Numbered from the stretch's first letter, positions 3,445-56,200 are shown. The stretch is DNA of 64,000 nucleotides from Leptonemataceae bacterium (GCA_965227295.1 OZ245742.1:5792001-5856000); one strand, 5' to 3'. The notes: generated by a model not told the origin, from the sequence alone. A program made the numbers and translations.

Positions 3445-3942
3445 ATGATCGAAGATTCTCCGCCCGTCCTACAATCTACGGCCGACGTCCTCGCGCAACT
3501 GGAACGCAAATGTTTCGAGACCGGCTGGTCCGCCGCCGACCTGGCATCCGCTCTTGTGGCACCGGCGAAAACGATCGCGCTGATCGCCGATGCGGAGAGC
3601 GACCGTGTAGCGGCCTGGCACGTCACCGAACCGGTGGAGCTTCCGGCGATGCCGGGCGGCTACGCGCTGCTGCGGGAGCTGGAACCCGGCCTCGCCGAAG
3701 TGCTGCGCATAGCCGTGGAACCCGAACGGCGGCGGCGCGGACTGGCCGGTAGACTGCTGCAATATGCGTTCACGGGCAACGACATTTTCACCGGCTCCGC
3801 CACGAACTTCCTGCTCGAGGTCGCGGCAGGCAACGCGGCCGCTGTCGCGCTCTATCGCAAGCATGGCTTCGAGCAGATTCACGTCCGGAAGTCCTACTAC
3901 GCAAACGGTGAGGACGCCTTGATTTTTCAAACGAAGTTCTAG
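3445..3942 (+). CDS. rimI: RimI-like GNAT N-acetyltransferase
   Basis: LERKCF..W, IAVEPERRRRGLA, LEVAAGNAAAVALYRKHGF, RKSYY..GEDAL. Start uncertain. Confidence 0.85.
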   Translation: MIEDSPPVLQSTADVLAQLERKCFETGWSAADLASALVAPAKTIALIADAESDRVAAWHVTEPVELPAMPGGYALLRELEPGLAEVLRIAVEPERRRRGLAGRLLQYAFTGNDIFTGSATNFLLEVAAGNAAAVALYRKHGFEQIHVRKSYYANGEDALIFQTKF

Positions 3943-3970
3943 ATACTGACGCGGCCGAGGCACAGCACGT

Positions 3971-4375
3971 ATGATTCACGCAAGCACAACGATTCTGGAA
4001 TTCCTGGGAAAGACCCGGCTCACGCCGTACGAGGCCCTGGGTTATTATTTTCTGAAGTTACTGCTGGTATCGTTCGCTCTGTATCTCGTGATCCAGGCGA
4101 TCGGCGCGATCCCCATGCTCGGCCGCTTCTTCCGCGCGTCCTGGGGCAAGCTGGTACTCTACATTCTCACGCTTGCCACGGCCGGGCTGCTCGCGTTTCA
4201 ACTGGTGCCGCTGCGGATTTTACGCGCGCTGGAACTTACGGGCGGGCCCAAAGAATTCGTGTGGCCGGACATTGTCTTTACCGCGCTCATGCTCGCGTCG
4301 CTGAGTCGCTTGTGGGAGTTGGGGCATCGCTGGATTGAAGGCAAGGTTTCGAACGCCGGTGGGCCGGAGTTTTAG
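3971..4375 (+). CDS. hypothetical membrane protein
   Basis: 134 aa with three hydrophobic segments; fills the gap between rimI and murB. Confidence 0.7.
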   Translation: MIHASTTILEFLGKTRLTPYEALGYYFLKLLLVSFALYLVIQAIGAIPMLGRFFRASWGKLVLYILTLATAGLLAFQLVPLRILRALELTGGPKEFVWPDIVFTALMLASLSRLWELGHRWIEGKVSNAGGPEF

Positions 4376-30290: not shown

Positions 30291-32399
30291 CTACTCCAAA
30301 TACTCATACGCGCTGCGATATTCGCCGTTCTTCTGCACGAATTCCAGAAAACGTTCGTAAAACGAATGATAACACAGCGTCGCCGAATCCCCTACAACCA
30401 CTAATAACCGGCGGGCCCGGGTTAAGGCGACGTTCATGCGGCGGACCTCGCCCAGAAAACCGGTCTCGCCGTCATCGTTGGAACGCACCAGAGAAATGAG
30501 GATCACGTCGCGCTCGCGGCCCTGAAAGGAATCCACGGTATCCGCCTCGATCATCAGCGCGCCGTCCGCGCGACCGAAGACGTCCTCGCCGTAACGTTCC
30601 CGCAGCACGTGGCGCAGGTGCCGCGCCTGATCGCGATAGGCGGCGATTACGCCGGTACTGAGCTGTTCCCCGGCGTTCGTTGCGGCGCCCTCAATGTTTT
30701 CCAACAACGTCAATAACAGGCGCGCCTCGCCCTCGTTTTTGTAACTGAGCGTTTCCGGATTCTGCTCTTCGACGCAGTCGGCCCCGGCCGTATCCACGAA
30801 AACCAGGGGTGCCGCGTATCCCAGTTCGTCAAGAATCGTCGCCGGCTCGCGTTGTTGCACGACGGAGGCGGTTTGCAGGCGATCCCCGTAAAATTCGCGG
30901 TTGGAAAACGCCACGATCTCCGGCTCCATGCGGTACTGCGTGTTCAAAAAAAAGATGCGCCCGCTCTCCGGATGGCGCCGGACCGTCTTTTCAAAAAGCG
31001 TCTCGCTGAGCTCCGGCGTGCCCGTCCCCGTAGAACTTTCTAACATCAGTGGAGATGACTTTACGACGGGCGGCAGTTGATGATGATCCCCGGCGAAAAC
31101 AACACGATCGGCCTTGCGCACGGCGATCCACGCCGCCGGCTCCAGCGCCTGGGATGCCTCGTCGATGACGGCGAGATCGAAGCGCAGCCCGCGCAGACGC
31201 ACGTTCGAGGCGCCGACCAGGGTCGTCAGGATCACCGTCGCGCGATCGATGATGTGCGCGACGATACCGTCTTCGATCCCGCGGATTTGCTTTTGTAGTT
31301 CACGGTACTCCTGGTACAGGGACCGCCGTTCCGCCGCCTCCGCGGCCCCGAAGTTGCGACGATACCGGCGCGCCTCGCGATGAATCTTTTCGGCTTCCCG
31401 GCGCAGGGCAATGACCGTCTTCATCTCCGGATGTTCTTCGCTCCGGCCCTCCAGGGTATGCCGCCACAGATTCTCGCTCACCCGGGCCGGATGACCGAGG
31501 CGGAGCACGTTCAGGCCCGCGGCGCTTAACTTTTCTACAAGTAAATCTACGGCGGCGTTGGTGGGCGCCGCGGCCAGGATCTTCAGCGACTGCGTGTTTT
31601 CATGCTGCCGCCCGTAGTCCGCCACGGTCGCGATCGCCGCCGTGACCGTGGTGGTCTTCCCGGTCCCCGGCGGTCCGTGAATGACGGCGAACTCGGCGGT
31701 GTTCTGCATGAGTGCGAGCACGCCGGCCACGGCCTCCCGCTGGGACTCGTTTAGATCTTCACACTTCTCCGCAAACTTCCGATGTACGTCGGTTACGGTG
31801 AGGGCCTGCGGACGGCTGTATCCCAGGAGGCGGTCGCGAATTCGTCGGCTGTTTTTGCCCGGGCCTTTGTGGTCCGGCTCCACCAGCGACCGCACGGCGA
31901 ACTCCATTTCACGATACGTGGTCTCATTGAATGTAAGGTCCAGGCCGAGACCGCCGGTCCCGCTCTCGGCCCAACCGGGCAGTTCCTCCGCCATGATCGT
32001 AACCGTGTCCGGACGCGTTTCCGCAATGACCCCGCCCAATCGCTGACTTTCACCGGCCGCATCTTTAGAAGCACCGTCGTCTCCGCCGCGAAAGAGTTCC
32101 ACCACCTGGCCGCTCTGGAAACGGCGCACCGCATCGCGCTCTTCTCCGGAGGCCGGCGGCAGGCGCAGACGCAGGCGCCAGCGGTCACCGAGGCTGATGC
32201 GCGTATCTTCGACTTCGACGGGATGCAGCGTAATGCCGATCTCTTTGCGGCGGGCGAGCGGCAGGGACAGCCATTCCCGACGAAACTCTTCGCGCTCGGC
32301 TTCTTTCTCGGCGGCCAGGAGTTCCAGGAGATGCAACAGTTCTTCGGGGGCGGAAGAAAACGGCGGTTCGGTAACAGGATCGCGATCGGCGGCGGCCAT
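30291..32399 (-). CDS. SF1 helicase, IGHMBP2/DNA2-NAM7 family
   Basis: HGPPGTGKT, APTNAAVD, DEASQ, GDHHQLPP, QYRM, DSFQGRE, RRMNVALTRA. Confidence 0.93.
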   Translation of the reverse strand: MAAADRDPVTEPPFSSAPEELLHLLELLAAEKEAEREEFRREWLSLPLARRKEIGITLHPVEVEDTRISLGDRWRLRLRLPPASGEERDAVRRFQSGQVVELFRGGDDGASKDAAGESQRLGGVIAETRPDTVTIMAEELPGWAESGTGGLGLDLTFNETTYREMEFAVRSLVEPDHKGPGKNSRRIRDRLLGYSRPQALTVTDVHRKFAEKCEDLNESQREAVAGVLALMQNTAEFAVIHGPPGTGKTTTVTAAIATVADYGRQHENTQSLKILAAAPTNAAVDLLVEKLSAAGLNVLRLGHPARVSENLWRHTLEGRSEEHPEMKTVIALRREAEKIHREARRYRRNFGAAEAAERRSLYQEYRELQKQIRGIEDGIVAHIIDRATVILTTLVGASNVRLRGLRFDLAVIDEASQALEPAAWIAVRKADRVVFAGDHHQLPPVVKSSPLMLESSTGTGTPELSETLFEKTVRRHPESGRIFFLNTQYRMEPEIVAFSNREFYGDRLQTASVVQQREPATILDELGYAAPLVFVDTAGADCVEEQNPETLSYKNEGEARLLLTLLENIEGAATNAGEQLSTGVIAAYRDQARHLRHVLRERYGEDVFGRADGALMIEADTVDSFQGRERDVILISLVRSNDDGETGFLGEVRRMNVALTRARRLLVVVGDSATLCYHSFYERFLEFVQKNGEYRSAYEYLE

Positions 32400-32515
32400 C
32401 GCAGCAGGATGCAGCACACGGCTGAACGCGCGAGTGAAAAAGTGCGCCCGCCCGCCGCTCAAGCTGGAAAGCGGCGGGCGAACACAGAGGAGTAAACGCT
32501 TGCATGGAGTGCGGT

Positions 32516-37865: not shown

Positions 37866-37872
37866 ACAGTTT

Positions 37873-39333
37873 TTAACTGCTGGAAGCAGCCGCGTCGTTC
37901 GCGGAATCGATGCGCAGCCGAAAAATTTCAATGATCCGATCGAACTCGACGACGCTCGCGTCGAGTTCCGACGACGAACCCGCGCCGAATGCACAGGCGT
38001 CGCGCAACTTTGCCAGGTTCGCGGCCGTCGATTCGAACATCCAGGCCGCCCCTTCGAAGAGATACAACTTGCGTAAGGCCTTGCGCGCGGTCTTCCAGTC
38101 ACCGGCGAGGGTCGCGGTTTCGAGAGCGGTGGCCACGGTCCAGTAGTCCCGCGCGTCGATGCCGCCGCGACGGGCCACGGCGAAGGCCGCGGCATGGGCG
38201 TACGTCCGCGCTTCGTCCTGCGCCTCTTCGAACTCCCAGGGATCCTGGCGGCGCAGAAAACGGTGGGCACGCACAAACATCAACGTGGCCGCGTTTACGC
38301 CGGGATAGTAATCCGACGGATCCAGATGAAAACCCTCGCGATACGCCGCGACCGCCTCGTCCAGATGCAACGAGGCTTCAAAGTCGGAACCGTTCGCCAG
38401 GGCTTCGTCGAAGTTATCTTTATGAATGCGGCCGAGCAATCCTAAAGTTTCGGAAGTATGAAGTTTATCCGCGATGAGTTGGTCCAGGACGGCCTTCGCC
38501 CGGCGGCGATCACCGTCACCCTTGCGGCGATTCAACGCGAAGGCAAACAGTTCGCGCACCGCCGGAGAAGCAGCGAGCGGACCGTCCGGCAACCGTTCCA
38601 CCGACGCAATCAACGCGTCGTAATCCTTGACGTCGCGATAGGCGCGCAAGAGATCCAGAAAAAGCTCCGTTTGATGTTCTCCGGGCCCGGCCTCGCCGAA
38701 GTGTTCGGCCGCAAACCTGGCCACGGCCTCCCGGGCGTTCGCGGCGCTGACGCTTTCGCGCAATGCCTCGCGCACGTGAGCGGCCGCGTTCAGCCGTTCG
38801 CGGAAACTCGCGGCGGTGCGCGGGTCCATCGGCACGCCGGGATAGTCCGGAATCAACCCGAACAACGGACTGTCCTGGAGATTCCGGTCCTCCAGGTATT
38901 CTTTGATCTTGCGCGTCAAGTTACTGCGCAACGATTCGGCCTCGGCGTCTTCGAGATAGCCGGCGTTGAGCTTGTACGGCAGACCGCGGAGCATGTTGAT
39001 GTCAAAGGGCGGCGGCCCCGAGGGCGCGAAGATCATGAGCGTGGAACGCGGTCGGGCGGCGTGACGTACGCCGAGTTCGTAGTATACGTTCGCGTTGGGT
39101 ATGGTGACCTCGGCGATGACGAAGTCGGCGCAGAGCAGACGCTCGAACATGGGCGTATGAATGATGCCGCCGCCCTTTTCCTCGTCGGCGCGGATCACGT
39201 CCAGTCCGGCATCCAGGCACGCCGGACGGATCCCCGCCTGGTAAATGCGATCGAAATCGATCTCGTGAATTCCGGCCGCGTCCATCTTCTTGCCGAAGGG
39301 CATTACGATAAAAGCTAAAGGATTATTCGACAT
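37873..39333 (-). CDS. NDT/deoxyribohydrolase-like domain + TPR-S (DUF4071, MAP3K TRAF-binding-like) protein
   Basis: FIVMPFGKK, RADEE, NANVYYELGVRHA; ETLGLLGRIHKD, YYPGVNAATL, DYW..AT..E. Confidence 0.85.
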   Translation of the reverse strand: MSNNPLAFIVMPFGKKMDAAGIHEIDFDRIYQAGIRPACLDAGLDVIRADEEKGGGIIHTPMFERLLCADFVIAEVTIPNANVYYELGVRHAARPRSTLMIFAPSGPPPFDINMLRGLPYKLNAGYLEDAEAESLRSNLTRKIKEYLEDRNLQDSPLFGLIPDYPGVPMDPRTAASFRERLNAAAHVREALRESVSAANAREAVARFAAEHFGEAGPGEHQTELFLDLLRAYRDVKDYDALIASVERLPDGPLAASPAVRELFAFALNRRKGDGDRRRAKAVLDQLIADKLHTSETLGLLGRIHKDNFDEALANGSDFEASLHLDEAVAAYREGFHLDPSDYYPGVNAATLMFVRAHRFLRRQDPWEFEEAQDEARTYAHAAAFAVARRGGIDARDYWTVATALETATLAGDWKTARKALRKLYLFEGAAWMFESTAANLAKLRDACAFGAGSSSELDASVVEFDRIIEIFRLRIDSANDAAASSS

Positions 39334-39342
39334 AAGTTAGAA

Positions 39343-39981
39343 TCAGCCCTGGGGGATTGCGCTTTTGTCGGAGCCGTCGTCCGTGGTCGCGGGACCGGGG
39401 CCGGTTTCGCTTTGCCCCGCGGCGGGCCTGGCGTCCGTCCCTCCGGCGACGGGCGCGTCTTCGGCTTTGTCGCTCTTCTTTGAAAGTACTTTGCGACTCG
39501 CGTTCCGGCCCCAGGCCGCCACGGTCTTTGCGATCAACCCTTCCGTGCGTTCGACGAAGAGCGGAAACGGATCCGCGCCTTCGGTGCTATCTTCGTCGTA
39601 GACTTCCGCCCGGGCCAGATAAAGAAACTTCTCGCGGGTCAGGGACTCACTGATGAGCCGGTAATCCACCCAGTTCTCGTGAAACTTAAAGAGCGATAAC
39701 ATGCCCGCAACGATTGTTAATAGGACACCGATGCCGCTCACTACCAGGGGTAGTACGAGGACGCCGAACGCCTCCGGCAAGACGATGGCGATGCCCGACA
39801 GGAACGGGATGCACGCCGCCAGGATGATGTTGAGTACCGTCAGCCAATGGTACCGGGTCTTGTTTTTCCCGCTGTTTTTGGAATGCCAGGCGATCTGTCC
39901 ATCCACGCGGTCCCGGATGTAGCCTGCCGGATCGAGATCGTCCGCCGTAAACGGCGCCGTTGAATCGGTGTAAGGGTGCAT
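39343..39981 (-). CDS. SLATT (DUF4231) two-TM protein
   Basis: YIRDRVDGQIAWH, two TM helices, FHENWVDYR..SESL.REKFLY, FVERTE. Confidence 0.88.
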   Translation of the reverse strand: MHPYTDSTAPFTADDLDPAGYIRDRVDGQIAWHSKNSGKNKTRYHWLTVLNIILAACIPFLSGIAIVLPEAFGVLVLPLVVSGIGVLLTIVAGMLSLFKFHENWVDYRLISESLTREKFLYLARAEVYDEDSTEGADPFPLFVERTEGLIAKTVAAWGRNASRKVLSKKSDKAEDAPVAGGTDARPAAGQSETGPGPATTDDGSDKSAIPQG

Positions 39982-40201
39982 GTTACGATCCTACTCCGAT
40001 CATCGAGATTCCGCGAGCGAGATTCCAGACCGCAACGTTGCGTTGCGCGAACTTTTCAGTCATTGCGAAAGATCCTTACCATTACCACGGCCGGCCGGAA
40101 AATCTCTGAAAAGCAAGCGCCCCTCGCAACGCTCCGCTTAAGATTCCCAAAAATTCAGCTTGCGGCATGTCTTAATATCGAGGAAATTCACGGGCCCCGA
40201 A

Positions 40202-41722
40202 ATGAAAGCGCCACAGAACGACATCTTCATCAGCTACGCTCACATCGACAACGCCTCGTTTTCGGAAGATGAGGAAGGCTGGGTCACGCAGTTGCACCGC
40301 ATCCTGGAATTGCGTCTGGCGCAATTGATGGGCGAGCAGGCCCGGGTATGGCGCGATCAAAAACTAAAGGGCAATGACATATTCGACGAGACCCTGGAGG
40401 AACGTTTTCGTAACACGAAGCTTCTGATCTCCATCGTAAGCCCGCGCTACGTTAAGTCCGATTGGTGCATTCGAGAATTGAACGGTTTCAGCGAGGTGGC
40501 CCCGCCCGCCGGGGATCGTTCCCGGGTGTTTAAGGTCGTGAAGACGCCCGTGGATCTTGACCGCATGCCGGAGCAGTTCCAGCGTACGCTGGGCTACGAG
40601 TTCTACAAAAAACATCCCGAAACCGGACGCCCCCTGGAGCTCAGCCTGGACCAACCGGAGACCAGGAAGGATTTCCTGGCCCGTCTGGACGATCTGGCGT
40701 ATGAGATCGTCGAATTACTGCAGGAACTCCGCAACGGAACGCCGGCCGATCCTCATCCGGAAGGCCGTACAATCTATCTGGCAGAAACAAGTTTTGATGC
40801 AGAGGATGAACGCGACGCGTTGAAACGCGATCTCCTGGAAAAAGGCCACCGCGTCCTGCCGAACCTGGAGTTGCCCGACAACGCTCCGGGAATCGACCGG
40901 GCGGTGAACGAAGCACTGGCGGAATCCGATCTTTCGATTCATATCGTGGGCGGCTACTACGGCGTGGTGCCCGCCGCCACGGAATACTCCGTCGTCCATT
41001 TGCAGGATGACATCGCCGCGGATCATGCCGAACAATCGCCGCAGTTCATGCGTTTGATCTGGCTCCCCGCGAATCGTCCGGCCCGGGAAGAACGCCAGCA
41101 AAAGTTCCTGCACGATCTGCATAATGACCCGCGCGCCGCGGGACGAACCGATATCGTGCACGGTACATTAGAGGAATTTAAGGAAGTCGTCGAAGAAACG
41201 CTGAAGAACCTGCGCAGTCGGGAAGCCCGTGCCGAAGAACGCGGGACCACCGCGAAGGAAGGCGCGGCGTCCGCGAACGAAAACGCGGGCAGCGTCTACC
41301 TGATCTACTGCCGCGAAGATGAGGAGGAGGCCTATTCCCTGGCGGAGTACCTGTTTGAAGTACACGGCCTGAACGTTATGACGCCCCTGCTGGACGGCGC
41401 GGGCGACGAAAGCGAACTGCGCGAAGATCATCGGGAGAATCTCGTTTCCTGTGACGCCGTAATAATTTTCTACGGCTCCGCTGAAGAGACCTGGCTGCGG
41501 GAAAAACTCCGCGAACTCAAAAAGATTCCCGGCTACGGTCGCGACCGTCCGTTTTCCGGCCGCGCGGTATTTCTGGCACCGCCGGCCACGCCGCATAAAA
41601 CCAAACGCCTGCTGGTCCAGGGCGTGGAAATCATTCGCAGTACCGACGAGATCCGTCCGGAGACCCTGGAAGATTTCGCGATTCGTATCAAAGAAAAATC
41701 CGGCGCGGAGGCGTCGGCATGA
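40202..41722 (+). CDS. TIR-domain protein with two further TIR/DUF4062-like Rossmannoid domains
   Basis: DIFISYAHID..WV, SPRYVKSDWCIREL; second domain TIYLAETS..DLSIHIVG; third domain SVYLIYCRED..CDAVIIFYG. Confidence 0.85.
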   Translation: MKAPQNDIFISYAHIDNASFSEDEEGWVTQLHRILELRLAQLMGEQARVWRDQKLKGNDIFDETLEERFRNTKLLISIVSPRYVKSDWCIRELNGFSEVAPPAGDRSRVFKVVKTPVDLDRMPEQFQRTLGYEFYKKHPETGRPLELSLDQPETRKDFLARLDDLAYEIVELLQELRNGTPADPHPEGRTIYLAETSFDAEDERDALKRDLLEKGHRVLPNLELPDNAPGIDRAVNEALAESDLSIHIVGGYYGVVPAATEYSVVHLQDDIAADHAEQSPQFMRLIWLPANRPAREERQQKFLHDLHNDPRAAGRTDIVHGTLEEFKEVVEETLKNLRSREARAEERGTTAKEGAASANENAGSVYLIYCREDEEEAYSLAEYLFEVHGLNVMTPLLDGAGDESELREDHRENLVSCDAVIIFYGSAEETWLREKLRELKKIPGYGRDRPFSGRAVFLAPPATPHKTKRLLVQGVEIIRSTDEIRPETLEDFAIRIKEKSGAEASA

Positions 41723-43662
41723 ACGGGGATATTCGCAATCCCTTCCCCGGCCTGCGGCCGTTCCAGCCGCACGAAAATCATCTCTTCTTCGGTCGCGAAG
41801 ATCAGATCGACGAACTGATTTCGATTCTCCGTCGTCGGCACTTCCTGGCCGTCGTGGGTACCTCGGGCAGCGGCAAGTCTTCTCTGGTGCGCGCGGGTTT
41901 GATTCCGGCTTTGCAGAGCGGTTACATGCACGGCGAAAGCGCGAACTGGAAGATCATCCTGCTGCGTCCCGGCGACGGACCGCTGCAAAAACTCGCCCGG
42001 GGCATTAACATGGCCTTCGGCGAACGCGACGAATACTACCCCATGCGCGCTTCATTGATCGAAACCACATTGCGGCGCAGCGATCTGGGGCTGCGCGAAG
42101 CATTGCGCCAGGCACGGCCGCCGGAGAACACGAACGTGCTCATTCTCGTCGACCAATTCGAGGAGCTGTTTCGGTTTCATGAAGCGGCCAGGCATCGCAA
42201 CGCCGGCTCGGACGAGGCCTCGGCTTTCGTACGTTTGCTGTTAAAAAGCAGTGTCGAGAACCAGGATGGTTCCGTATACGTTTGCCTGACCATGCGCTCG
42301 GACTTCCTGGGCGACTGTTCGTTGTTCTCCGGACTGCCGGAGGCTCTCAACTCCGCTCAATATTTGATTCCTCGGTTGAGTCGTAATCAAAAACGCCGGG
42401 CCATCGCCGGCCCCATGGCCGTCAGCGGGGCGCGCATGAGCGCCCGCCTGTTGCGCCGACTCTTAAACGATATCGGCGACGACCAGGACCAGTTGCCGAT
42501 CTTACAACACGCGTTGATGCGCATCTTCGATCGCTGGCGCTCGACCCTTTTGTACGGGAGACGCAAAGGGGACGGCCCCGTTCCCTTCGAACAAATGCGC
42601 GAGATTGACCTGGAAGATTACGAGGCGGTGGGCGGATTTCAGGAAGCCCTTTCGCGTCACGCGGAGGAGTTGCTGGGAGTCATCGCCAGACGTCACAGCG
42701 ATGCCGGCATTGCGGTCGCCGAGGCCTTGTTCCGTCGGCTCACGGAAATGGGACCGGACAATCGCGGCGTGCGCCGCCCGGCGCGCTTCGAAGAGATCCC
42801 CGCCGTCGCCCACGCGCCGCGGGAGGTCGTCGAGGACATCGTCAACATCTACCGCCACCCCTCCTGTTCATTCATTATGCCGCCGCCCGGAACGCCCTTG
42901 AGCGACAACGTGGTAATTGATATTTCCCATGAAAGTTTGATGCGGGTGTGGAGTCGGTTAACGACCTGGGTCGCAGCCGAGGGGCGTTCGGCGCGCATCT
43001 ATCGACGCCTGGCCGAGACGGCCGGCATGCACGCCCGGGGGGAGGCGGCGCTCTACACGGGCGAGGACCTGAACGTTGCCCTGGAATGGCGGGAAAACGA
43101 ACGACCCGGTCCGGTGTGGGCCGAACGTTACGGCGGAGACTTCGAATACACCATGCAGTTCCTGGAGACGAGCCGGCGCAGTCGCGACCAGGAACAGGCG
43201 GAACGCAAGGCCAGGGAACTCGCCCTCCAGGAAGCCCGGGCCCTGGGCGAACAGAGTCTCGTTCTGCGCAACATCATCTCTACGATTCCGCACTATATCT
43301 TCTGGAAAAACCAGGACCTGATCTACCAGGGTTGCAATGAAAGTTTTGCACGCGCCGCCGGCCTGGAGGACGCTGCTCAAATCGTCGGCCGTTCCGATCT
43401 GGAGTTGTGGCCCGCGGAAGAGGCCGAGAAATATCGTGCGGACGATCGGCGCGTAATGGAGCTGGGCGAGCCGGAGTATCTCGAAGAGGCCCAGACCCAG
43501 GCGAACGGCGAGACCATCTGGGTGGCCACGAACAAGGTTCCTCTGCGTAACTCTCAGGACCAGGTGATCGGAATCCTCGGTACCTTTATGGATATTACGC
43601 ACATCAAACGCCTGGAGCTCCAGCTGGAACGTATGAGCGGTAAAACGGTGGAGGAGACATGA
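41719..43662 (+). CDS. nSTAND1 NTPase with C-terminal PAS/PAC domain
   Basis: NPFPGLRPF..FFGRE, GTSGSGKSSLVRAG, LVDQFEELF, TMRSDF, LPILQHAL, DISHESL; then IPHYIFWKN..GCN..F..KVPLRN..IGILG..DIT. Confidence 0.9.
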   Translation: MNGDIRNPFPGLRPFQPHENHLFFGREDQIDELISILRRRHFLAVVGTSGSGKSSLVRAGLIPALQSGYMHGESANWKIILLRPGDGPLQKLARGINMAFGERDEYYPMRASLIETTLRRSDLGLREALRQARPPENTNVLILVDQFEELFRFHEAARHRNAGSDEASAFVRLLLKSSVENQDGSVYVCLTMRSDFLGDCSLFSGLPEALNSAQYLIPRLSRNQKRRAIAGPMAVSGARMSARLLRRLLNDIGDDQDQLPILQHALMRIFDRWRSTLLYGRRKGDGPVPFEQMREIDLEDYEAVGGFQEALSRHAEELLGVIARRHSDAGIAVAEALFRRLTEMGPDNRGVRRPARFEEIPAVAHAPREVVEDIVNIYRHPSCSFIMPPPGTPLSDNVVIDISHESLMRVWSRLTTWVAAEGRSARIYRRLAETAGMHARGEAALYTGEDLNVALEWRENERPGPVWAERYGGDFEYTMQFLETSRRSRDQEQAERKARELALQEARALGEQSLVLRNIISTIPHYIFWKNQDLIYQGCNESFARAAGLEDAAQIVGRSDLELWPAEEAEKYRADDRRVMELGEPEYLEEAQTQANGETIWVATNKVPLRNSQDQVIGILGTFMDITHIKRLELQLERMSGKTVEET

Positions 43663-44000
43663 ATCAAAAGATCTTTATTTTAACAAGCGCCGCCGCCTAC
43701 GAACAAGCACGCGCGCTCGGACAGTACGCAATTCCCGATCCCACCGAGGGATTCATTCACGCCTCCCCGGCGGATCAGTTGAACCGGGTGGCCAACAAGT
43801 ACTACACGGGGGTTGAAGACCTGCTGCTGCTCATCGTGGACCCGCAGCGCGTCCACGCGGAAATCAAATGGGAACCGGCCACCGGGGGACTCTATCCGCA
43901 CATCTACGGCGATCTGAACCTCGACGCCGTAACCAAAATCGTACCAATTCAAAAAGCAGCCGACGGAACGATCGTCATTCAGCCGGAGACTCTGGAATAA
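43659..44000 (+). CDS. DUF952 family protein
   Basis: EGFIHAS..Q...VANKYY, LLLL.VD, IKWE..YPHIYG.LN..AV. Confidence 0.9.
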   Translation: MNQKIFILTSAAAYEQARALGQYAIPDPTEGFIHASPADQLNRVANKYYTGVEDLLLLIVDPQRVHAEIKWEPATGGLYPHIYGDLNLDAVTKIVPIQKAADGTIVIQPETLE

Positions 44001-44025
44001 GCCGGAACGCGCCGCGGGGGAAGCC

Positions 44026-44319
44026 ATGGGATTCAAAGTTGAGTTTAATAACATCTTACGAACGGATGTTTTCAGATCGAAGGACTTGAACCAGGGAGAG
44101 CGCTACGGCTTCAGCAAGGCCGGGGACCGTATCTTTATGGACACGCTTCCCATCTGGCTGAGCCGTAGCGACTGGACCGCGATCGCGGAAATCCGCATTG
44201 TTACGCAGACCAGACAGGGCCGACGCGTACACGGCGAATTCGAAGTACTGCACGTCTACAACACGGCGGAGCGACGCGCCATTACAAGAATGTTTCGCCG
44301 CATGTTCGGCCGGGCGTAG
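44026..44319 (+). CDS. DUF2584-like small protein
   Basis: MGFKVEFNNIL..K.G.RIF..PI.L...W.A.A.I.I pattern resembles DUF2584 as recalled. Confidence 0.6.
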   Translation: MGFKVEFNNILRTDVFRSKDLNQGERYGFSKAGDRIFMDTLPIWLSRSDWTAIAEIRIVTQTRQGRRVHGEFEVLHVYNTAERRAITRMFRRMFGRA

Positions 44320-44322
44320 TCG

Positions 44323-46215
44323 TCAATCCAGCTCACGTCCCTTCGCCAGGTTATCGACGATCCAGGTACCCACGCGCAGCGCGTTGGCCATCACACTGAC
44401 CATGGGATTTACTCCCAGGCCCGTGGGCATAAAACTGGAATCCACGATGAACACGTTCCGGACCTCGTGCATGCGGCAATTGCGGTCCACCACCGACGTC
44501 AGCGGATCGTCTCCCATGCGACAGGTTCCCATCTGGTGATCGCCGATCAACGTGAGATCCGCGCTGTCGGGGACACGCAGTTCAATGCCGAGATCCTGAT
44601 AACGCGAGAAGATATCCTCCAGCCTGGAACGCAACAGCCGAAAGATCAGCCGCTCGTGTTCGCCGAAGCGCCGGGTAATGCGCGCCACCGGCAGCCCGAA
44701 TTCGTCGACATAGGTCGGATCCAGGGTCACGCGGTTGTCCGCCATGGGCAGATCGTCTCCCGTGGCCCGGAGTTCCAGGCTGCGGGCGTAACGATCCATC
44801 TCGCGCAGGAGATCCAGGCCGATCTTCGCGCCGGTACCGCTTACGAGTTCGTAAGCGTGAAAGAGCGGATCTTTGCGTTGCGTGCCCGTTAAGATTCCGC
44901 TCTTCCACCAGCGTTCGTCTTCATCTTTCAGAAAGTAGTGATCGTAAATAGCCGCCGATCCGGTGTTACCGATTTGTGAATGCAACATGCCCTGGTATTT
45001 TTCCGGCAGCACGCAACGAGCGGTCATACCGAAGAGATGAAACATGGCATAACGACCGATGTTGCCGTAACGATTGCCCAGGCCTTCCGGCGGACCTGAT
45101 AACAGCAACAAACGAGAAGTTTGTACCGCACCGCACGAAAGTATGACGAAACGCGCTCGTTCGATGCGGATCACGGGATTGTCCGGGTCCGTGAGATCGA
45201 GATACTTCACTCCGGTGGCCCGCCGCAGTCGATCGTCGTACATCACTTCGATGACTTTCGCCCCCGTTCGTACCTCGGCGAACTCCGGCAAATCGTTCAA
45301 CTCCCGAATCGTCGTGGAAAAGGTCCCGCTCTTGGGCGGCCGACTTCCCCAGCATACGTACTCGCCGCAGTAGCCGCAGAGGTTACAGGGATCCCGCCGA
45401 CGCTCCGACCACAACTCTTCCGCCGGACGCCGCCAGAAACTACCGCTTCGATCCCGCCACGACGCCTGCGCACGCGCAATCTGCTCGCGCGTATCGTACT
45501 CCGGTCCCCCGGGATGTACCAGGGCCGTCGGAAGACACACGGGATTGAGTCCGGCATGCCTCGCGCCCTGGTGAACGAAACGACCCACCGGGGTCAGAGG
45601 ATAGTCGGGGGCGGGATAGGGAAAGTCTGCGGCCCAGGCGCCGTATTCCGCAAAGTTCGGATTAATGGAACTCAGCGCTTTATACCATTCGCTTTCCACC
45701 AGCGCGCGGTTCATCGCGTCGCGATCACCGCAAACCGCCAGCAAAACCTCCGCAATGTTGAAGTACGGTTCGAATTCCGAGTACGAGACCGGCCAGTCGG
45801 GGATCGAATAGCCCCAACGTTCCAGTTCCTCCAGTTGCCCCGTACGTTGAAAGTGATCCCGCAAACGCAGGTCCACGGGCAACGGTCGCACGGCCCATCC
45901 GCCCCAGAGCATGGAGCCGCCTCCGAGCGCCGTGCCGGTATAACCCCCGGAAAACGGACGCGCGTCGACCTTTTCGGAAGGCCGAAACGTACAGTAATCT
46001 CCCCTCAGTCGACGTTTAGGGTCGGGACGTTCCAGACGAAATCGAAACTCGTCGTGCATGGTCGGATCGAAACTCCGGTCCGATTCGTGGATGGGGCGCG
46101 TCCAGTCCGCGCCCTGTTCTAATAGCAACGTTTTGTATCCGGCCCTGGCGAGCATCCAGGCGATCGTTCCGCCTCCGCCACCGCTGCCTACGACGATAAA
46201 ATCCAGATCAGCCAT
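44323..46215 (-). CDS. GMC-family FAD oxidoreductase large subunit (gluconate 2-dehydrogenase-like)
   Basis: IVVGSGGGGG FAD motif, LGGGS..WG, CNLCGYCGEYVC Fe-S-type motif, HQMGTCRMG, NP..S..ANALR. Confidence 0.9.
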   Translation of the reverse strand: MADLDFIVVGSGGGGGTIAWMLARAGYKTLLLEQGADWTRPIHESDRSFDPTMHDEFRFRLERPDPKRRLRGDYCTFRPSEKVDARPFSGGYTGTALGGGSMLWGGWAVRPLPVDLRLRDHFQRTGQLEELERWGYSIPDWPVSYSEFEPYFNIAEVLLAVCGDRDAMNRALVESEWYKALSSINPNFAEYGAWAADFPYPAPDYPLTPVGRFVHQGARHAGLNPVCLPTALVHPGGPEYDTREQIARAQASWRDRSGSFWRRPAEELWSERRRDPCNLCGYCGEYVCWGSRPPKSGTFSTTIRELNDLPEFAEVRTGAKVIEVMYDDRLRRATGVKYLDLTDPDNPVIRIERARFVILSCGAVQTSRLLLLSGPPEGLGNRYGNIGRYAMFHLFGMTARCVLPEKYQGMLHSQIGNTGSAAIYDHYFLKDEDERWWKSGILTGTQRKDPLFHAYELVSGTGAKIGLDLLREMDRYARSLELRATGDDLPMADNRVTLDPTYVDEFGLPVARITRRFGEHERLIFRLLRSRLEDIFSRYQDLGIELRVPDSADLTLIGDHQMGTCRMGDDPLTSVVDRNCRMHEVRNVFIVDSSFMPTGLGVNPMVSVMANALRVGTWIVDNLAKGRELD

Positions 46216-46942
46216 GATTCAAATCCTCCTCGATCGTTTTCATGAATCGATCGCATACCTCAGCCGCGAACTCCGGGGTGTAAGTATTTCCCGGGCGACG
46301 GTGTTGGCCTAACTCAATCAGCAGAGCTTCTCGAAAGGGCTGCTGCGCAGGGTTACGTCCACCCAGGGCGGAGTACAAAAGATCCGCACAATAGCGTTTC
46401 AGAAATTCCTTCGAAGTAAAATGCGTGCCCGGCCAATTCGGATTGCGATCTTCGAATAACGAAGCGGCGTAGCACTTCCAGTCGTCCGCGCTTTCCGGGG
46501 CATTCAATTCCGTGCAGTACATGAAGTCCGGCAGCGTCTTCTCGTAAAAGTCGATGCGCGAGATTTGTCGCGGACCGCTCTTCAGTACGTTGTAAGCACG
46601 TTCCGGATCGAAGGCGGGTCGATTGTACAATCCCCGGTCCGCGCGCCAGGCCCGGGCGGCTTCACTTCCGTCGGGATGACGCACCAACGGATCGTAACGA
46701 TGCTCGCGCCAGAGATACAACAAATCCTTACCGCCGGACGTTTCCCGCATTAGACCCTTGAAAAATAGTAACGCGCCGGTATGCGCAATGCGCAGAGTTT
46801 CCCCCGACTCCCGCCAGGGTGGTGAAGGTTCCGGCACCAGGAACTTTTGCTCGATCCAGTCCTCCAGTGGAAGGAGCGCGTCGGCAAGGGCCTCCAGGTT
46901 CGTCATCATATCATGATTCAGCAATTTCCCGATATAAGCCAT
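46208..46942 (-). CDS. hypothetical protein, probable small partner subunit of the GMC enzyme
   Basis: Overlaps the GMC start by 8 nt; LEALADALLP and YSALGGRN resemble gluconate-DH subunit 3 motifs. Confidence 0.55.
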   Translation of the reverse strand: MAYIGKLLNHDMMTNLEALADALLPLEDWIEQKFLVPEPSPPWRESGETLRIAHTGALLFFKGLMRETSGGKDLLYLWREHRYDPLVRHPDGSEAARAWRADRGLYNRPAFDPERAYNVLKSGPRQISRIDFYEKTLPDFMYCTELNAPESADDWKCYAASLFEDRNPNWPGTHFTSKEFLKRYCADLLYSALGGRNPAQQPFREALLIELGQHRRPGNTYTPEFAAEVCDRFMKTIEEDLNHG

Positions 46943-47119
46943 GGCCCGCTCTATGCCGAGCGCTATATTTACGCAATCTAAACTTAATAAAAGTTACAGT
47001 TACCGATTGATTTACGATCGATGCAGCATATGCAAGAAAATCGAATATTTTGCGCCCACATCGAAGGCGTACTAAAAGGAGACATGACAACCGCCGCACC
47101 GCATAGTAAGGCAATGAGC

Positions 47120-48121
47120 ATGAAAGCAATCATCATCGAAAAACGCGGCGGGCCCGAGGTTCTCCAGATCCAGGAAGTGCCGGACCCGGTACTGGTACCC
47201 GGTCACGTAATCATCAAGGTCCTGGCGTCGGGACTGAATCCCATCGATGCAAAAGTCCGGGCCCTGGACCTGCCGTTCGCGCCGAAGACGCCGGCCATTC
47301 CACATTGCGATGCCGCCGGCGTGATAAGCGCCGTAGCTGAAGATGTGCGTCACTTAAGAATCGGAGACGAGGTATACTGCTGCGCCGGCGGCATCGCGGG
47401 TACGCCGGGGGGCGCGCTCGCGGAATACATGCTCGCGGACGCGAACCTGGTCGCGCGAAAACCGAAGCGACTGAGTTTTCAGGAAGCGGCCGCCGTACCC
47501 CTGGTGGGACTCACGGCCTGGGAGGCCCTCGTCTGGAAGGCGGGGATTCGCCCCGGGGACAACGTATTGATTCACGGGGGTACCGGCGGCGTCGGCCACT
47601 TCGCCGTGCAACTCGCGCGCGCCGCGGGGGCCCGGGTTACCGCAACGGTATCGTCCGCAAAAAAAGCACGCGTGGCGAAGCAGCTCGGCGCAACGACCGC
47701 GGTAAATCGTACGAAGATGCCGCCGGAACAGTATGTCCGCGAACTTACGGACGGCCGGGGCTTCGACGTCGTCTTCGATACGGCCGGCGGAGACAATCTT
47801 GAGCGTTGCATCGAAGCGACACGACCGAACGGAACCATCGTAAGCGTCGCGGCCCGGGAGGAACATAACCTTCTTCCAATGTATGTTAAGGGCCTGAGTC
47901 TGATGAACGTACTCATGCTGGTTCCCATGCTGACCGGTGTCGGTCGGGACCGTCACGGCGCGATCCTGGGAAAGCTCGCGGCATTGATCGACGCCGGACA
48001 CCTGAAGCCGCTCTTACATAAGAAGACATTCACGTTCGCCACGGCGGCGAAGGCCCACGCCCTGCTGGAAAGCGGACGCCATACCGGCAAGATCGTACTG
48101 CAAGGCTTTCATAAGAGTTAG
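47120..48121 (+). CDS. MDR-family quinone oxidoreductase-like protein
   Basis: GGPEVL, GLNPID, TAWEAL, HGGTGGVG, HTGKIVL. Confidence 0.9.
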   Translation: MKAIIIEKRGGPEVLQIQEVPDPVLVPGHVIIKVLASGLNPIDAKVRALDLPFAPKTPAIPHCDAAGVISAVAEDVRHLRIGDEVYCCAGGIAGTPGGALAEYMLADANLVARKPKRLSFQEAAAVPLVGLTAWEALVWKAGIRPGDNVLIHGGTGGVGHFAVQLARAAGARVTATVSSAKKARVAKQLGATTAVNRTKMPPEQYVRELTDGRGFDVVFDTAGGDNLERCIEATRPNGTIVSVAAREEHNLLPMYVKGLSLMNVLMLVPMLTGVGRDRHGAILGKLAALIDAGHLKPLLHKKTFTFATAAKAHALLESGRHTGKIVLQGFHKS

Positions 48122-48267
48122 CCGCGGATACGCGGGGGTTCGGATTGCCCGCCGCGGAGGGGTGCTCGAGCCATCGTACTGTACTTCGGCGTCGGTAGCC
48201 TGCGCGGGTCGATTCGGCGTTCATCTTGACACACAGCGCGGGCGCGGGGCTTTTAACGCATCTCGCC

Positions 48268-51141: not shown

Positions 51142-53055
51142 TCACATCTGCATCGCCGCGCGGGCCGCGACGGCCATCAACTTGTCGTGAAAGACCTGGG
51201 CCGCGCGGTCCGTCGGGTTTTCGGCGACGACCTTTTCGAGGACCGAAGCCGCGCCCGCGTAGTCCTTTTGTTTCGTTAAGCGAATGGCCTCTTCGAAAGA
51301 GGCGCGCGTGCGGACCTTGCCTTCGCGCTCCATCGCCGGCAATCCGTCCAGGATCTCGTGAATCGGCACGCGAGTGGTGCGACCCTTCACACGAATCTCG
51401 CCCATGTAACGCGACTCGAAGACTTCCTGCCCCTGGCGCGCGGCCTCAAGCACGCTTTCACTCACGATCATGGTAACGCCGAAGTGTTTCGTCAACGACT
51501 CGAGACGCGCGGCGACGTTCACGGCATCCGAGATTACGGTGCCGTCCATGCGCTCGTCCTCGCCCACGGTGCCTAACATCAACTTACCGAGATGTAAGCC
51601 GATGCCGAAACGTACCGGCCCAAGACCGGCGGCAGACCGGTCGGCGTTAAACAACGCCAGCTCCATCATCATCTGCACGCCGGCCAGAAGGCCGTCGCGC
51701 GCTTCGCCGGGAAAGAGCGCCATCACCGCGTCGCCGATGTACTTGTCGATGAAACCGCGATTCTCGCGAATGATAGGCGAGAGTCGCTTGAGGTACTCGT
51801 TCAGAAACTCAAAGTTCTCTTCCGGCGACATCTCCTCGGACATGGCCGTAAAGCTGCGGATATCGCAGAACATCACGGTCATTTCTTTGAGTACCTGATC
51901 TCCCAGGTTCACGGTGCGCACGCTGTCGTGGCCCATATTCCGCAAAAACTCCCGCGGCACAAAACGTTCGATGGCGGTGTTCATGGCCGCCAGTTCTTCG
52001 GAGCGTTCGCGCAGTTGCTCCAGGGTGCTGTTCAGTTCTTCGCGGCCGGCTTTGAGGTCGCTCACCATCTCGTTGAAGGCCCGGCCCAGGCGTCCGATCT
52101 CGTCGCCGGAGCGCACCTGTACCTGCGTGTCAAAATTCCCTTCGCCCAGTGCCTCGACGCCCTTCGTTAACTCCAGAATACCGAAACTTAACATGCGCGC
52201 GAACACGAATGACAATACGAAAGCGAACACGAGCCCCGCAATGATCAAGCCCACGGAAACGTTCCAGTAATAGTTCAAAAGATTCGCCTCACCGCGAATG
52301 TCGTAGTCGAGACCGAGGATCGCCAGGATGTTGCCGTCGGCGTCTTTGATCGGTACGGCCGCGGAGTACCAGGTGCCCCACGCGTCGGTGTACCACTCCC
52401 GCGAGGCCGCCGCCTGCCCGCTCTTGTAGGCGGCAATGAACTCCGGCGCGCTGACCCAGACAGTGCCGGCGGGATTACCGCTTTCGTCATCCTGGATGAT
52501 GCCGTCACCGTTCTCGTCGAACTCTTCGTAGTCGGTGTCGGCGATGAACATGGAGTGCGTCATATCCGGCGACTCCGGAATCGGCGCGACCAGGTAAACA
52601 AAACGCACCAGTGGCGGATCGTTCGGATCTTCCAGTTGTTGCGGCAACTTCTCTCGCAGCGCGATCACCGAACGGCGACTGCCTTCTTTAATACGCCGCA
52701 TGATCTGCACCAGACGCTGGAAGTTCGGTCCGTTCATGATGCGCGCCCGCGCCGGCTTCGGTACGTTCTGGATAACATCGTCTTCCGGCAGGGCCGCGAG
52801 TTCCGCCGCGGGGATCACCGGCCGCGCGGCGATGATGTTTTTGCGCAACGCGACAATGGCCTTGCGATCTCGATCCTCGAACAGATAGGCGCCGGTCCGT
52901 CCGAGTTCGGTAAGACGCTCGCCCATTTGCCGCAGCGTGGTGTTGTAGATGTTGTAGTAGTAGAAGAGTCCGCTCGCGCCGCTCAACGCCAGGGACAAAC
53001 CAAAGAGCGCCCCGGCAATCTTAGCTGTAAACGAAAGATTCTTAAAAGGTCCCAC
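51142..53055 (-). CDS. membrane adenylate/guanylate cyclase (sensor domain, HAMP, class III cyclase)
   Basis: Two TM segments, DEIGRLGRAFN HAMP, FCDIRSFT, DKYIGDAVMA, TVISDAVNVAARLE. Confidence 0.93.
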   Translation of the reverse strand: MGPFKNLSFTAKIAGALFGLSLALSGASGLFYYYNIYNTTLRQMGERLTELGRTGAYLFEDRDRKAIVALRKNIIAARPVIPAAELAALPEDDVIQNVPKPARARIMNGPNFQRLVQIMRRIKEGSRRSVIALREKLPQQLEDPNDPPLVRFVYLVAPIPESPDMTHSMFIADTDYEEFDENGDGIIQDDESGNPAGTVWVSAPEFIAAYKSGQAAASREWYTDAWGTWYSAAVPIKDADGNILAILGLDYDIRGEANLLNYYWNVSVGLIIAGLVFAFVLSFVFARMLSFGILELTKGVEALGEGNFDTQVQVRSGDEIGRLGRAFNEMVSDLKAGREELNSTLEQLRERSEELAAMNTAIERFVPREFLRNMGHDSVRTVNLGDQVLKEMTVMFCDIRSFTAMSEEMSPEENFEFLNEYLKRLSPIIRENRGFIDKYIGDAVMALFPGEARDGLLAGVQMMMELALFNADRSAAGLGPVRFGIGLHLGKLMLGTVGEDERMDGTVISDAVNVAARLESLTKHFGVTMIVSESVLEAARQGQEVFESRYMGEIRVKGRTTRVPIHEILDGLPAMEREGKVRTRASFEEAIRLTKQKDYAGAASVLEKVVAENPTDRAAQVFHDKLMAVAARAAMQM

Positions 53056-53232: not shown

Positions 53233-56200
53233 TCAGTTCGCCCGCGTTGCTTCCATGGTCATCGACTGCGTCTCTTCCATTCTCTGGAGCGCTATTTTGT
53301 AATCGCCCGGAATGATCTTAATAAACCGGCGCACTTCCTCGTTCCAGTTGTCGAGGATCTTGCGCGCGCGCTGCGAACCGGTGTACTCGAAGTGACGCGT
53401 AACCATGTGCAGCACCAGGTCCACGTCCGCCGGATCGGCGAGGTCTTCCAGGTCTACCATCTCCGGATTCACCACGCGCCGCGCGTTGCCGTCCAGGTCC
53501 CAGATATAAGCGATGCCGCCGGACATGCCCGCTGCAAAGTTACGCCCGGTAGAACCTAAGACCACCACGCGACCGCCGGTCATGTACTCGCAGCCGTGGT
53601 CACCCACGCCTTCGACGACGGCATGGGCACCGGAGTTCCGCACCGCGAACCGTTCGCCGGCCACACCCTGGAAGTAAGCCTCCCCGGACGTGGCCCCGTA
53701 GAGACAGGTATTGCCGATGATGATGTTGTCCGCCGGATCAAACGTGCTTTCTTCCGGCACGCGAATGATGAGCCGGCCGCCGGACAGGCCTTTGCCGACA
53801 TAGTCGTTCGCCTGGCCGCTCAGGCGCAGGTCGATGCCCTTTGCCAGAAACGTACCGAAGCTCTGCCCCGCCATGCCGCGCATGTTAATGCGGATCGTTC
53901 CGTCCGGCAGGCCTTCCTCGCCGTAGCGACGCGTCACCTCACCGGAGAGCATGGTGCCCACGGTACGATTCGTGTTGAATACCGGGACGTCCATCTCCAC
54001 GGACTCCCCGCGTTCCAGAGCCGGCTGTGCTTTCTGGATGAGCTCGTTGTCGAGTTGTTTCTCCAGGCCGTGCTCCTGATCGCGCGTGCGATACAACTTC
54101 GTGTCGAAGAGCGGCTCCACGGGGGTCAGGACGCGGCTGAAGTCCAGGCCGCGCGCCTTCCAGTGATCCCGCGGGCGAATCGGTTTGATGTACTCGGTGC
54201 GCCCGATCATATCCGTAAACTTACGGAACCCGAGCCGCGCCATGTACTCCCGCACTTCCCGGGCAATGAACATCATGTAGTTCTCGACATAGTCCGCGTC
54301 GCCCATGTATTTCTTGCGCAGGCGCTCGTCCTGCGTCGCCACACCGACGGGACACGTGTTCAGGTGACACTTGCGCATCATAATGCAACCGAGGGCGATG
54401 AGCGGAATCGTGGAGAATCCGAACTCGTCGGCGCCGAGCAGCGCGCCGACGATGACGTCGCGGCCGGTCATCATCTTGCCGTCCACGCCGATCCAGACGC
54501 GGTCGCGCAGGCCGTTGGCCACTAAGGTCTGATGCGTTTCACTTAAGCCCAGCTCCCAGGGAGTGCCGGCGTGCTGAATACTGGACACCGGCGAAGCACC
54601 GGTGCCGCCGTCGTGGCCGCTAATGAGAATATGATCGCTGTGCGCCTTGGCGACACCCGCGGCCACGGTCCCCACACCGACGCCGGAGACCAGTTTCACG
54701 CTCACGCGCGAGGCCGGGTTGATGTTCTTCAGATCGAAGATCAACTGCTTGATGTCTTCGATGGAATAGATGTCGTGGTGCGGCGGCGGCGAGATGAGCG
54801 TCACCCCCGGCGTGGACAGGCGCACTTTCGCGATGACGTCGTTCACCTTGTGACCGGGCAACTGGCCGCCCTCACCGGGCTTCGCGCCCTGGGCGATCTT
54901 AATTTGAAGATCGTCGGCGTTCACCAGGTAGTTCGCCGTCACACCGAAGCGCCCGCTCGCGATTTGTTTGATGGCCGAGCGCATGCTGTCGCCGTTTTCC
55001 AGCGGCTTGTAGCGAATGGAATCCTCGCCGCCTTCCCCGGTGTTCGACTTGCCGCCGACGCGATTCATGGCGATGGCCAGGTCCGTATGCGCCTCCCAAG
55101 AAATCGAACCGAAGGACATGGCGCCGGTCTGGAAACGTTTTACGATTTCTTCGACGGTCTCGACTTCTTCGATGGGCACGGGATCGCCCGCCGGCTCGAA
55201 GTCGAAGAGCGAGCGCAATGTAATGTGATGTTTGTGCTGATCGTCGACGAGCTGCGCGAATTCTTTGTACGTGTCGTACTCGTTGCGCCGCGTCGCGACC
55301 TGGAGCTTGTGCACGGACATGGGCGTGAGCAGATGATTCTCGCCGTCCTTGCGAAAGTAATGCAGCCCGCCCGGGTCCAGGCGACCGGGATAGTAGGTGG
55401 GATCGTAAGCGTTTCGGTGGCGGCGCAGGGCCTCTTCTTCCACCATCTCCGCGGACATGCCTTCGATACGCGTGTCGGTCCCCGTGAAGTAGGTGTTCAC
55501 GAGTTCGCTGTCGAGGCCCACCGCTTCGAACAACTGACCGCCGCAGTAGGATTGCAGCGTGGAGATGCCCATTTTGCTGAAGATTTTCAGCAGGCCCTTG
55601 CCCACGGCCTTGATGTAGTTCTTGCGCGCCGTGCGCACGTCCTCGACCTCGCTGTCCGGCAGAAATCCTTCTTTCTTTAAGTCGGCGATGGTCTCGAAGG
55701 CCAGGTAGGGGTTGATGGCGTTCGCGCCGTAACCCAGCAACAGGGCGAAGTGCGTCACCTCCCGCGGCTCCCCGGACTCGATGATGAGTCCGGTCCTGGT
55801 CCGCAAACCTGCGCGCACTAAAAAGTTGTGAACGGCAGCTACGGCGAGCAGCGAGGGAATCGGCGCCATGTTGTTCGCCACACCGCGGTCCGAAAGGATG
55901 ATCAGGTTCATGCCCTTGCGTACGGCGTCGGCGGCCTCGTCGCAGACCTGGTCCAGGCGATTGCGCATGCCGTGTTTGATGTCCGGGTCGAACAGGATGT
56001 TGATGGTGCTGGTCTGGAAGTGTCCCTCCGAAAGACCGCGGATTTTCTCCAGGTCTTTGTTCGTAAGAACGGGGTGCTCCAGCTCCAGGCGATGACAGTG
56101 TTCCGGCGTTTCCGCGAGCAGGTTCTGCTCCGGCCCGATGTACGTGGTAAGTTCCATCACCAGCTCTTCCCGGATGGGATCGATGGGCGGGTTCGTCACC

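Follow-up and report, generated by a model that had tools for sequence, protein, structure and literature searches.

A single PAS domain in the sensor position of a TIR-coupled nSTAND1 NTPase from a Leptonemataceae bacterium

The nSTAND1-PAS gene and its TIR partner

We studied a pair of adjoining genes in a 64,000-nucleotide stretch of the genome of a Leptonemataceae bacterium (GCA_965227295.1 OZ245742.1:5792001-5856000), hereafter the window, from whose start all positions are counted. The second gene of the pair (41719..43662, plus strand) is an open reading frame (ORF) for a 647-residue protein, P0001, in which Pfam and NCBIfam place an nSTAND1 nucleoside triphosphatase (NTPase) module and, behind a helix, a single PAS domain. 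The first gene (40202..41722, plus strand) encodes a protein made up of a TIR domain, a DUF4062 (NIR-like) module and a TIR-like C-terminal region, as assigned by Pfam and by alignment of homologues. We refer to this protein as TIR3 (P0002/P0266). The TIR3 stop overlaps the nSTAND1-PAS start, and the nSTAND1-PAS stop is overlapped in turn by the start of a DUF952 gene.

The NTPase module of P0001 occupies residues 8-438 (41740..43032). Here the Pfam family nSTAND1 (PF20703) scored 297.9 bits against a cut-off of 27.1 (E 2.2e-88) and was covered from position 1 to 371 of its 379. The P-loop (GTSGSGKSS, residues 46-54) and Walker B (VDQFEE, residues 144-149) are both intact, and G47, S49-S54 including K53, and D145-E149 were invariant across six aligned PAS-bearing proteins. 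The PAS domain lies at residues 523-628 (43285..43602), where PAS_4 scored 65.3 bits against a cut-off of 23.1 (E 7.3e-18); the PAS_9 and PAS families matched too. NCBIfam placed the PAS S-box family TIGR00229 at residues 515-635 of P0001 (E 1.9e-12) and also gave a local match to the ArcB PAS region.

An AlphaFold2 model of residues 481-647, built from a 75-row alignment of the PAS subtype, reached a mean predicted local distance difference test score (pLDDT) of 93.3. In it a long linker helix (residues 482-522, 43162..43284, block pLDDT 93-97) leads into a PAS core of five strands, which a C-terminal helix (residues 627-646) closes; the model is confident up to residue ~640. Beyond residue 438 Pfam reported PAS families only, and no WD40, TPR, kinase or cyclase family was reported in P0001. 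The protein stops about 20 residues past the PAS domain (43600-43662); all five aligned full-length relatives add a helical tail of 40-90 residues. A preliminary description of this DNA had read from it a complete nSTAND1 core, a short coiled coil, one PAS domain at ~43250-43620 and a stop, with neither WD40/TPR repeats nor a kinase or cyclase output, and the Pfam, NCBIfam and AlphaFold2 results agree with it throughout.

The joining of NTPase and PAS domain is not an assembly artefact, nor is it a one-off, because contigs cross the junction and the same domain order is kept at 43-48% identity in other organisms. The genome was assembled as one contig of 5,938,550 bases. Run X1 yields a 17,806-base contig that matches 40000-44200 without a single difference, and run X2 a 990-base contig that extends over 42941-43930 and agrees at the NTPase-PAS junction; the contigs of both runs were independently assembled. 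The runs belong to a single study and could be the data from which the genome was made. Five other protein clusters have the nSTAND1 and PAS architecture (P0006-P0009 and P0012, the source of the 43-48% identity). It is also found in four species-representative genomes: a Nitrosomonas metagenome-assembled genome (MAG) chromosome (locus L009), two Thermoanaerobaculia MAGs (L010 and L012) and a Phenylobacterium MAG (L011). Two metagenome proteins share it. The chimera or unspanned junction that the preliminary description had allowed for was thus not what we found.

The group is nevertheless very rare. A genome scan, scored by a profile built from six full-length proteins, kept 80 loci, of which only L009-L012 contained the NTPase; the other 76 had the PAS domain alone. 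A library of 1.84 billion representative proteins (50% identity) contained 27,531 matches to the profile at E ≤ 1e-30, and among the best 150 of these only two matched end to end. A metagenome scan with the C-terminal alignment gave 74 loci, none of them linking an nSTAND1 tail to a PAS domain. Longer fused forms were also sought, and PF20703 was absent from all 64 longer proteins with a related C-terminal region. The pattern-based scans rest on two conserved peptides, and more divergent nSTAND1-PAS proteins could rank below the matches listed. Among the relatives lacking PAS in 120 rows of matches, read by eye, most carried WD40/beta-propeller or TPR families and about 30 no further family, in keeping with the earlier statement that nSTAND1 proteins typically bear WD40/TPR sensors. 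The architecture is therefore not a common one, and we found no characterisation of it, although the preliminary description had considered that it might be both common and characterised.

A single origin of the fusion is neither shown nor rejected by the alignments, because two trees place P0001 differently. With IQ-TREE, run on 60 rows (7 PAS rows and 53 random non-PAS rows, after five long or odd rows were dropped), all seven PAS rows lay together to one side of a branch whose support was 62. With FastTree, run on 256 rows, P0001 fell outside a well-supported clade of six members. P0001 sits on a long branch, with 0.82-0.85 changes per column. Separately, P0128 was considered as a TIR-nSTAND1 fusion and rejected; it is a tandem nSTAND1 protein.

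The TIR3 ORF opens at a TTG codon at 40160. The ATG at 40202 is the likely start, as homologues align from the ATG form, and the gene ends at 41722. Pfam found TIR_2 at residues 22-129 (E 1.7e-16) and DUF4062 at residues 205-283, and the C-terminal 151 residues gave a weak TIR_2 match (E 0.0019). A TIR3 homologue of about 500 residues lies directly upstream of the nSTAND1-PAS gene, on the same strand, in all five loci, and the window protein aligns end to end with the upstream genes of L009-L012 at 33-40% identity. The family is a large one: of 8000 candidates scored, those at E ≤ 1e-20 made up 975 clusters. A sample of 400 other genomes from the phylum yielded no TIR3, which fits horizontal acquisition. 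In a search of defence models (PADLOC v2), TIR3 matched PDC-S66 and ThsB weakly.

The N-terminal TIR (40223..40546) contains a catalytic-type Glu within SDWCIRELNGF. In alignment, the TIR3 motif S-x-W-C-x-x-E-L has SRWCLDEL as its counterpart in the TIR domain of plant RUN1 (PDB 6o0w). Across 70 aligned TIR3 sequences, S86, C89 and E92 (P0266 numbering) were invariant in all 70, E92 being E106 in P0002 numbering. The Glu of the RUN1 motif we take to be the catalytic residue of that TIR. The first TIR is thus the likely catalytic unit of TIR3. The recurrence of TIR3 upstream in five of five loci and its invariant Glu support the separate TIR protein, earlier proposed as the effector, as the conserved partner of the NTPase. 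We regard the architecture of P0001 and its partnership with TIR3 as near certain.

The DUF4062 module (40772..41008) differs from its canonical counterparts. DUF4062, since renamed NIR, is described in a 2026 preprint (10.64898/2026.09.04.749371) as an NADase immune effector that needs a conserved Glu. In a MAFFT alignment the key column held Glu in 13 of 13 canonical domains, taken from related genomes, versus Gln in 14 of 14 TIR3 proteins; this Gln (Q268) was invariant in the 70 sequences. We infer that the column corresponds to E108 of PsAvs2. This pattern suggests that the TIR3 module is catalytically silent and has been kept for another role. Given the Gln that replaces the conserved Glu of DUF4062, the other two TIR-like modules of TIR3 probably serve assembly, docking or structure rather than catalysis.

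Island setting and adjoining oxidase genes

The pair lies in a strain-specific island of about 10.4 kb with eight genes (37866..48225), defined by comparison within the genus. Thirty related genomes were compared, and the same-genus genomes G001 and G002 keep the flanks (fumarase, TetR, acyltransferase and an Lnb-like gene). By arithmetic from BLASTN coordinates, the gap between the acyltransferase and Lnb-like genes is ~60 bp in G002 and ~970 bp in G001, where the window has the island; the island is thus missing from both. On the minus strand it carries genes for a MAP3K_TRAF_bd/TPR-S protein and a SLATT protein. The remaining genes are TIR3, nSTAND1-PAS, DUF952, a GMC oxidoreductase, P0127 and a zinc alcohol dehydrogenase. 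The island ends (37866 and 48225) show neither a tRNA nor direct or inverted repeats of at least 10 bases, and no integrase was found. The island GC content is close to that of the flanks. A scan of 39300-44500 for promoters and terminators gave counts not above those of shuffled sequence. Among the public runs listed as containing the stretch, none is of RNA.

The SLATT and TPR-S genes (37873-39981, minus strand) form a separate conflict-type pair: the SLATT_1/DUF4231 membrane protein P0004, then P0125, a protein of 486 residues with MAP3K_TRAF_bd/TPR-S domains and an unannotated N-terminal module of ~125 residues. Just outside the island, P0126 (35944-37065, minus strand) is a protein of 373 residues with a signal-like N-terminus, whose only match was NCBIfam LIC10775 (E 5.4e-14, below the cut-off). 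Elsewhere in the window are an AAA_11/AAA_12 superfamily-1 helicase (30291-32462), a HAMP-adenylate/guanylate cyclase (51142-53055) and an ORF of 1530 residues (53233-57825), all on the minus strand. At L009 in the Nitrosomonas MAG, a RelE-family toxin gene and a gene resembling a helix-turn-helix (HTH) antitoxin lie directly downstream of nSTAND1-PAS (L009:9145-9853).

The DUF952 gene (43659..44000, plus strand) encodes a protein of the ADP-ribosyltransferase fold, CC0527 type (Pfam DUF952, E 2.9e-25). It matched PDB 2o0q, the CC0527 protein, at E 3.5e-13, and CC0527 represents a clade of that fold. It is the only DUF952 gene in the genome and retains the histidines of FIHAS and YPHIYG. No counterpart was found in L009-L012, so DUF952 is not a core part of the module.

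Each of the five loci has, within a few genes of the pair, at least one FAD (flavin adenine dinucleotide)-dependent oxidase gene of the GMC or BBE type. Adjacency was scored at the nSTAND1-PAS loci only (non-PAS TIR3 loci: 2 further in 300 sampled genomes). In the window, a GMC-family FAD oxidoreductase (P0005, 44323..46215, minus strand; GMC_oxred_C, E 4.9e-21, and GMC_oxred_N by Pfam) is convergent with the operon. The start of its gene is overlapped by that of P0127 (46208..46942, minus strand), an unannotated protein of 244 residues with zero Pfam, NCBIfam or Atlas matches; the two genes together occupy 44323-46942. L009 has a GMC oxidoreductase at 3421-5178. L011 (10470-14969) and L012 (8730-13088) each have both a GMC gene and a BBE/FAD_binding_4 oxidase with an adjoining ABM-related gene, and L010 (6709-9014) has the BBE/FAD_binding_4 oxidase and its ABM-related neighbour. 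The GMC type is thus present in four loci, and the BBE oxidase with an ABM-related gene in three. Identity among the L010-L012 copies of the BBE and ABM-related genes is 42-78%; the ABM family itself was detected in L010 and L012, and the L011 copy is linked to them by homology only.

GMC genes are scarce in these genomes, with six GMC_oxred_C matches in the genome of the window and 3, 3, 2 and 3 in the others. Between the three lineages the GMC proteins share 23% identity or give no BLAST match; they are not orthologous, so the link to oxidases is one at family level. By our own rough estimate, a GMC gene would fall within ±5 kb by chance at 0.4-1% per genome. Because this holds across three independent lineages, adjacency by chance is very unlikely. 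In L011 and L012, nSTAND1-PAS is followed by three co-directional ORFs with spacings of 3-40 bases: a gene of unknown function, a small ORF and the GMC gene. The first of these (L011:8760-10046) belongs to a family without a name; one of its clusters carries the automatic label cytochrome c family. On the basis of that one automatic cluster name, the trio resembles a three-subunit flavoprotein dehydrogenase.

Such an arrangement might mean that TIR3 and nSTAND1-PAS are functionally wired to the adjoining oxidases, with the PAS domain reading redox state or an oxidase product, or with the oxidase acting on a derivative of nicotinamide adenine dinucleotide (NAD+) made by the TIR. We hold this to be a doubtful proposal. 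If it were true, the module would be an NLR-like switch of immune type that answers to metabolism or redox state rather than to a foreign protein that it recognises.

A possible PAS-gated switch and its alternatives

The PAS domain belongs to a subtype typical of histidine kinases: 19 of 20 sampled proteins of this subtype carry HATPase_c. By phmmer, the closest solved structure is the PAS domain of the Vibrio quorum-sensing receptor VqmA (E 4.5e-5). Foldseek also ranked VqmA first (root-mean-square deviation 1.9 over 117 columns, 25% identity), followed by the PAS domains of LOV proteins, BvgS, CitA, DosP and NifL. At least 500 PDB entries matched the PAS model at E ≤ 0.001, and all among the matches listed were PAS or LOV domains. 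The ligand of VqmA contacts F67, F99 and K101 (preprint 10.1101/2019.12.19.881847). These residues align with Y572, T604 and K606 of P0001, of which Y572 and K606 are chemically similar. All three are invariant in the nSTAND1-PAS clade and conserved throughout the subtype, the K606 column holding Lys in 74 of 75 members.

BLASTP aligned the domain with the PAS domain of Escherichia coli ArcB (27% identity, E 2e-11) and placed Cys539 at ArcB Cys180. Cys180 and Cys241 of ArcB are redox-active, and quinones silence the kinase through both cysteines (PMC8534201). At the Cys180 column, 68 of the 75 members of the subtype have Cys, P0001 among them; ArcB Cys241 aligns with W601. A redox-cysteine mechanism is therefore conceivable for P0001, judging from this alignment. 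The kinase subtype, VqmA as the nearest structure and Cys539 at the position of ArcB Cys180 all favour a metabolite or redox cue. The earlier proposal that such a cue, rather than a phage protein, controls oligomerisation is plausible.

Taken together, these observations suggest a PAS-gated nSTAND1 switch that activates NAD+ cleavage by TIR3 within an immune-type module. The repeat sensor would have been swapped for a helix of ~40 residues and one PAS domain drawn from the sensor-histidine-kinase repertoire. At rest, the PAS domain and helix would keep the NTPase closed. The PAS domain would lift this block on sensing its cue, for which the likeliest candidates are a small intracellular ligand and a redox change, by analogy with kinases of this subtype; the released NTPase would exchange nucleotide and oligomerise. 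The assembled scaffold would then gather TIR3, whose N-terminal TIR would cleave NAD+, for depletion or as a signal, and growth would stop. We give this chain as a whole a probability of roughly 55%. Its established part consists of the conserved NTPase motifs, a PAS domain in the sensor position, a coupled TIR partner with a catalytic-type Glu, and an accessory island near a SLATT/TPR-S pair.

Several points weigh against this PAS-gated switch. P0001 has T604 where VqmA has F99, and Y572 and K606, being conserved across the whole subtype, may be structural. The position of Cys539 is A/S/A/G in L009-L012, so a redox cysteine cannot be the conserved mechanism of the nSTAND1-PAS clade. Sequence signatures point to no particular ligand, cofactor or redox centre. 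P0001 could be impaired by the lack of the helical tail. The immune role is suggested by genomic context and homology, and in PADLOC v2 P0001 itself gave matches of P-loop length only (mad3, E 2.5e-4, residues 40-66).

PAS domains also mediate protein-protein contacts. The domain could thus be a protein-recognition or dimerisation module, with a phage or host protein binding the PAS domain or helix and no metabolite involved. Characterised antiviral STANDs sense phage proteins, as the 2026 survey of defence STANDs reports (PMC13581612), and the residues shared with the VqmA pocket, conserved as they are in the entire subtype, need not mark a ligand. The sensor has, however, just ~165 residues, and its subtype otherwise occurs in signalling kinases beside ligand-type modules such as GAF, PocR and other PAS domains. 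Unlike fast-evolving antigen sensors, the domain has also changed little between phyla, many columns being invariant in six sequences. On this evidence, recognition of a protein by the PAS domain seems unlikely.

MalT is a STAND regulator whose sensor binds a metabolite, licensing nucleotide-dependent oligomerisation. A second alternative is a regulatory STAND switch of MalT-like logic that is not anti-phage and is tied to the flavoprotein oxidases, the PAS domain reading redox state or a product linked to these oxidases and the TIR adjusting NAD+ or making a signal. The oxidase near the pair in every locus, the scarcity of GMC_oxred_C genes and the tightly following GMC genes of L011 and L012 speak for it, as does the retention in P0001 of the ArcB Cys180 equivalent. 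By contrast, the TIR3 family otherwise pairs with nSTAND1 proteins bearing typical immune-type sensors, the island carries the SLATT/TPR-S conflict pair, and L009 has its RelE-type toxin-antitoxin pair adjoining. We therefore consider a purely regulatory switch rather improbable. Finally, the window gene might be a decaying, truncated copy, its regulation or function disabled by loss of the 40-90-residue tail that five full-length relatives have and by the now abutting DUF952, as its long branch would also allow; this is highly improbable, since the frame is intact, the invariant NTPase and PAS residues are kept, the PAS model is confident to ~640 and both gene overlaps are preserved.

If PAS gating is correct, it suggests that the same NTPase-TIR machinery can come under small-molecule or redox input. 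The idea is directly testable, as the PAS domain is single, confidently modelled and easily purified. The locus also offers a compact system for studying how an NTPase switches on a separate partner protein with three TIR-like modules, and it presents an unexplained and statistically unlikely link between such a module and flavoprotein oxidases.

Comparison with known systems

The nearest catalogued systems are the gene pairs of Kaur et al. 2021 (PMC8195603). Supplement file 1 of that study lists neighbourhoods of TIR+DrHyd+TIR followed by nSTAND1+BetaPropeller/TPR/EP1, with 12 occurrences of TIR+DrHyd+TIR. These pairs share with ours the PF20703 NTPase, the upstream TIR/DUF4062/TIR-like partner of ~500 residues, the gene order and the strand. 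They differ in the sensor: theirs are beta-propeller, TPR or transmembrane modules, whereas here a single PAS domain stands behind a helix. The string "nSTAND1+PAS" has no occurrences in 12 of the 13 supplementary files (all but file 13), and nSTAND1 combined with GAF, HISKIN, REC, CC, SHELIX or CACHE has none in file 1.

Avs and other bacterial NLR-like proteins likewise consist of an effector, a STAND NTPase and a C-terminal sensor, and their effectors include NAD+-degrading ones, among them the DUF4062/NIR domain of PsAvs2 (10.64898/2026.09.04.749371). Unlike them, the present system has its effector on a separate polypeptide and a PAS sensor of ~165 residues rather than a large repeat array that binds phage proteins. 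The 2026 Nature survey of defence STANDs (PMC13581612) clustered only sensors of at least 400 residues, so the nSTAND1-PAS type falls outside it. The supplements of that survey that were examined do not contain PAS, nSTAND1, PF20703 or PF08448 as whole words. A full-text literature search on nSTAND1 and on STAND NTPase with PAS domain and TIR found no description of this architecture.

The PAS domains of VqmA, ArcB and sensor kinases have the same canonical fold after a long helix. The output differs, being here an NLR-like NTPase and not a kinase or an HTH domain. MalT, which resembles the proposed switch in its logic, belongs to a different STAND clade and has a DNA-binding output rather than a TIR, and a helical-repeat sensor rather than a PAS domain. 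By its sequence affinities, then, the NTPase belongs to nSTAND1 and the gene pair to the catalogued type in which TIR+DrHyd+TIR precedes nSTAND1, and the sensor is the exception. The pairing of TIR3 with nSTAND1 was already known; what is new is the PAS sensor on nSTAND1, rare and conserved.

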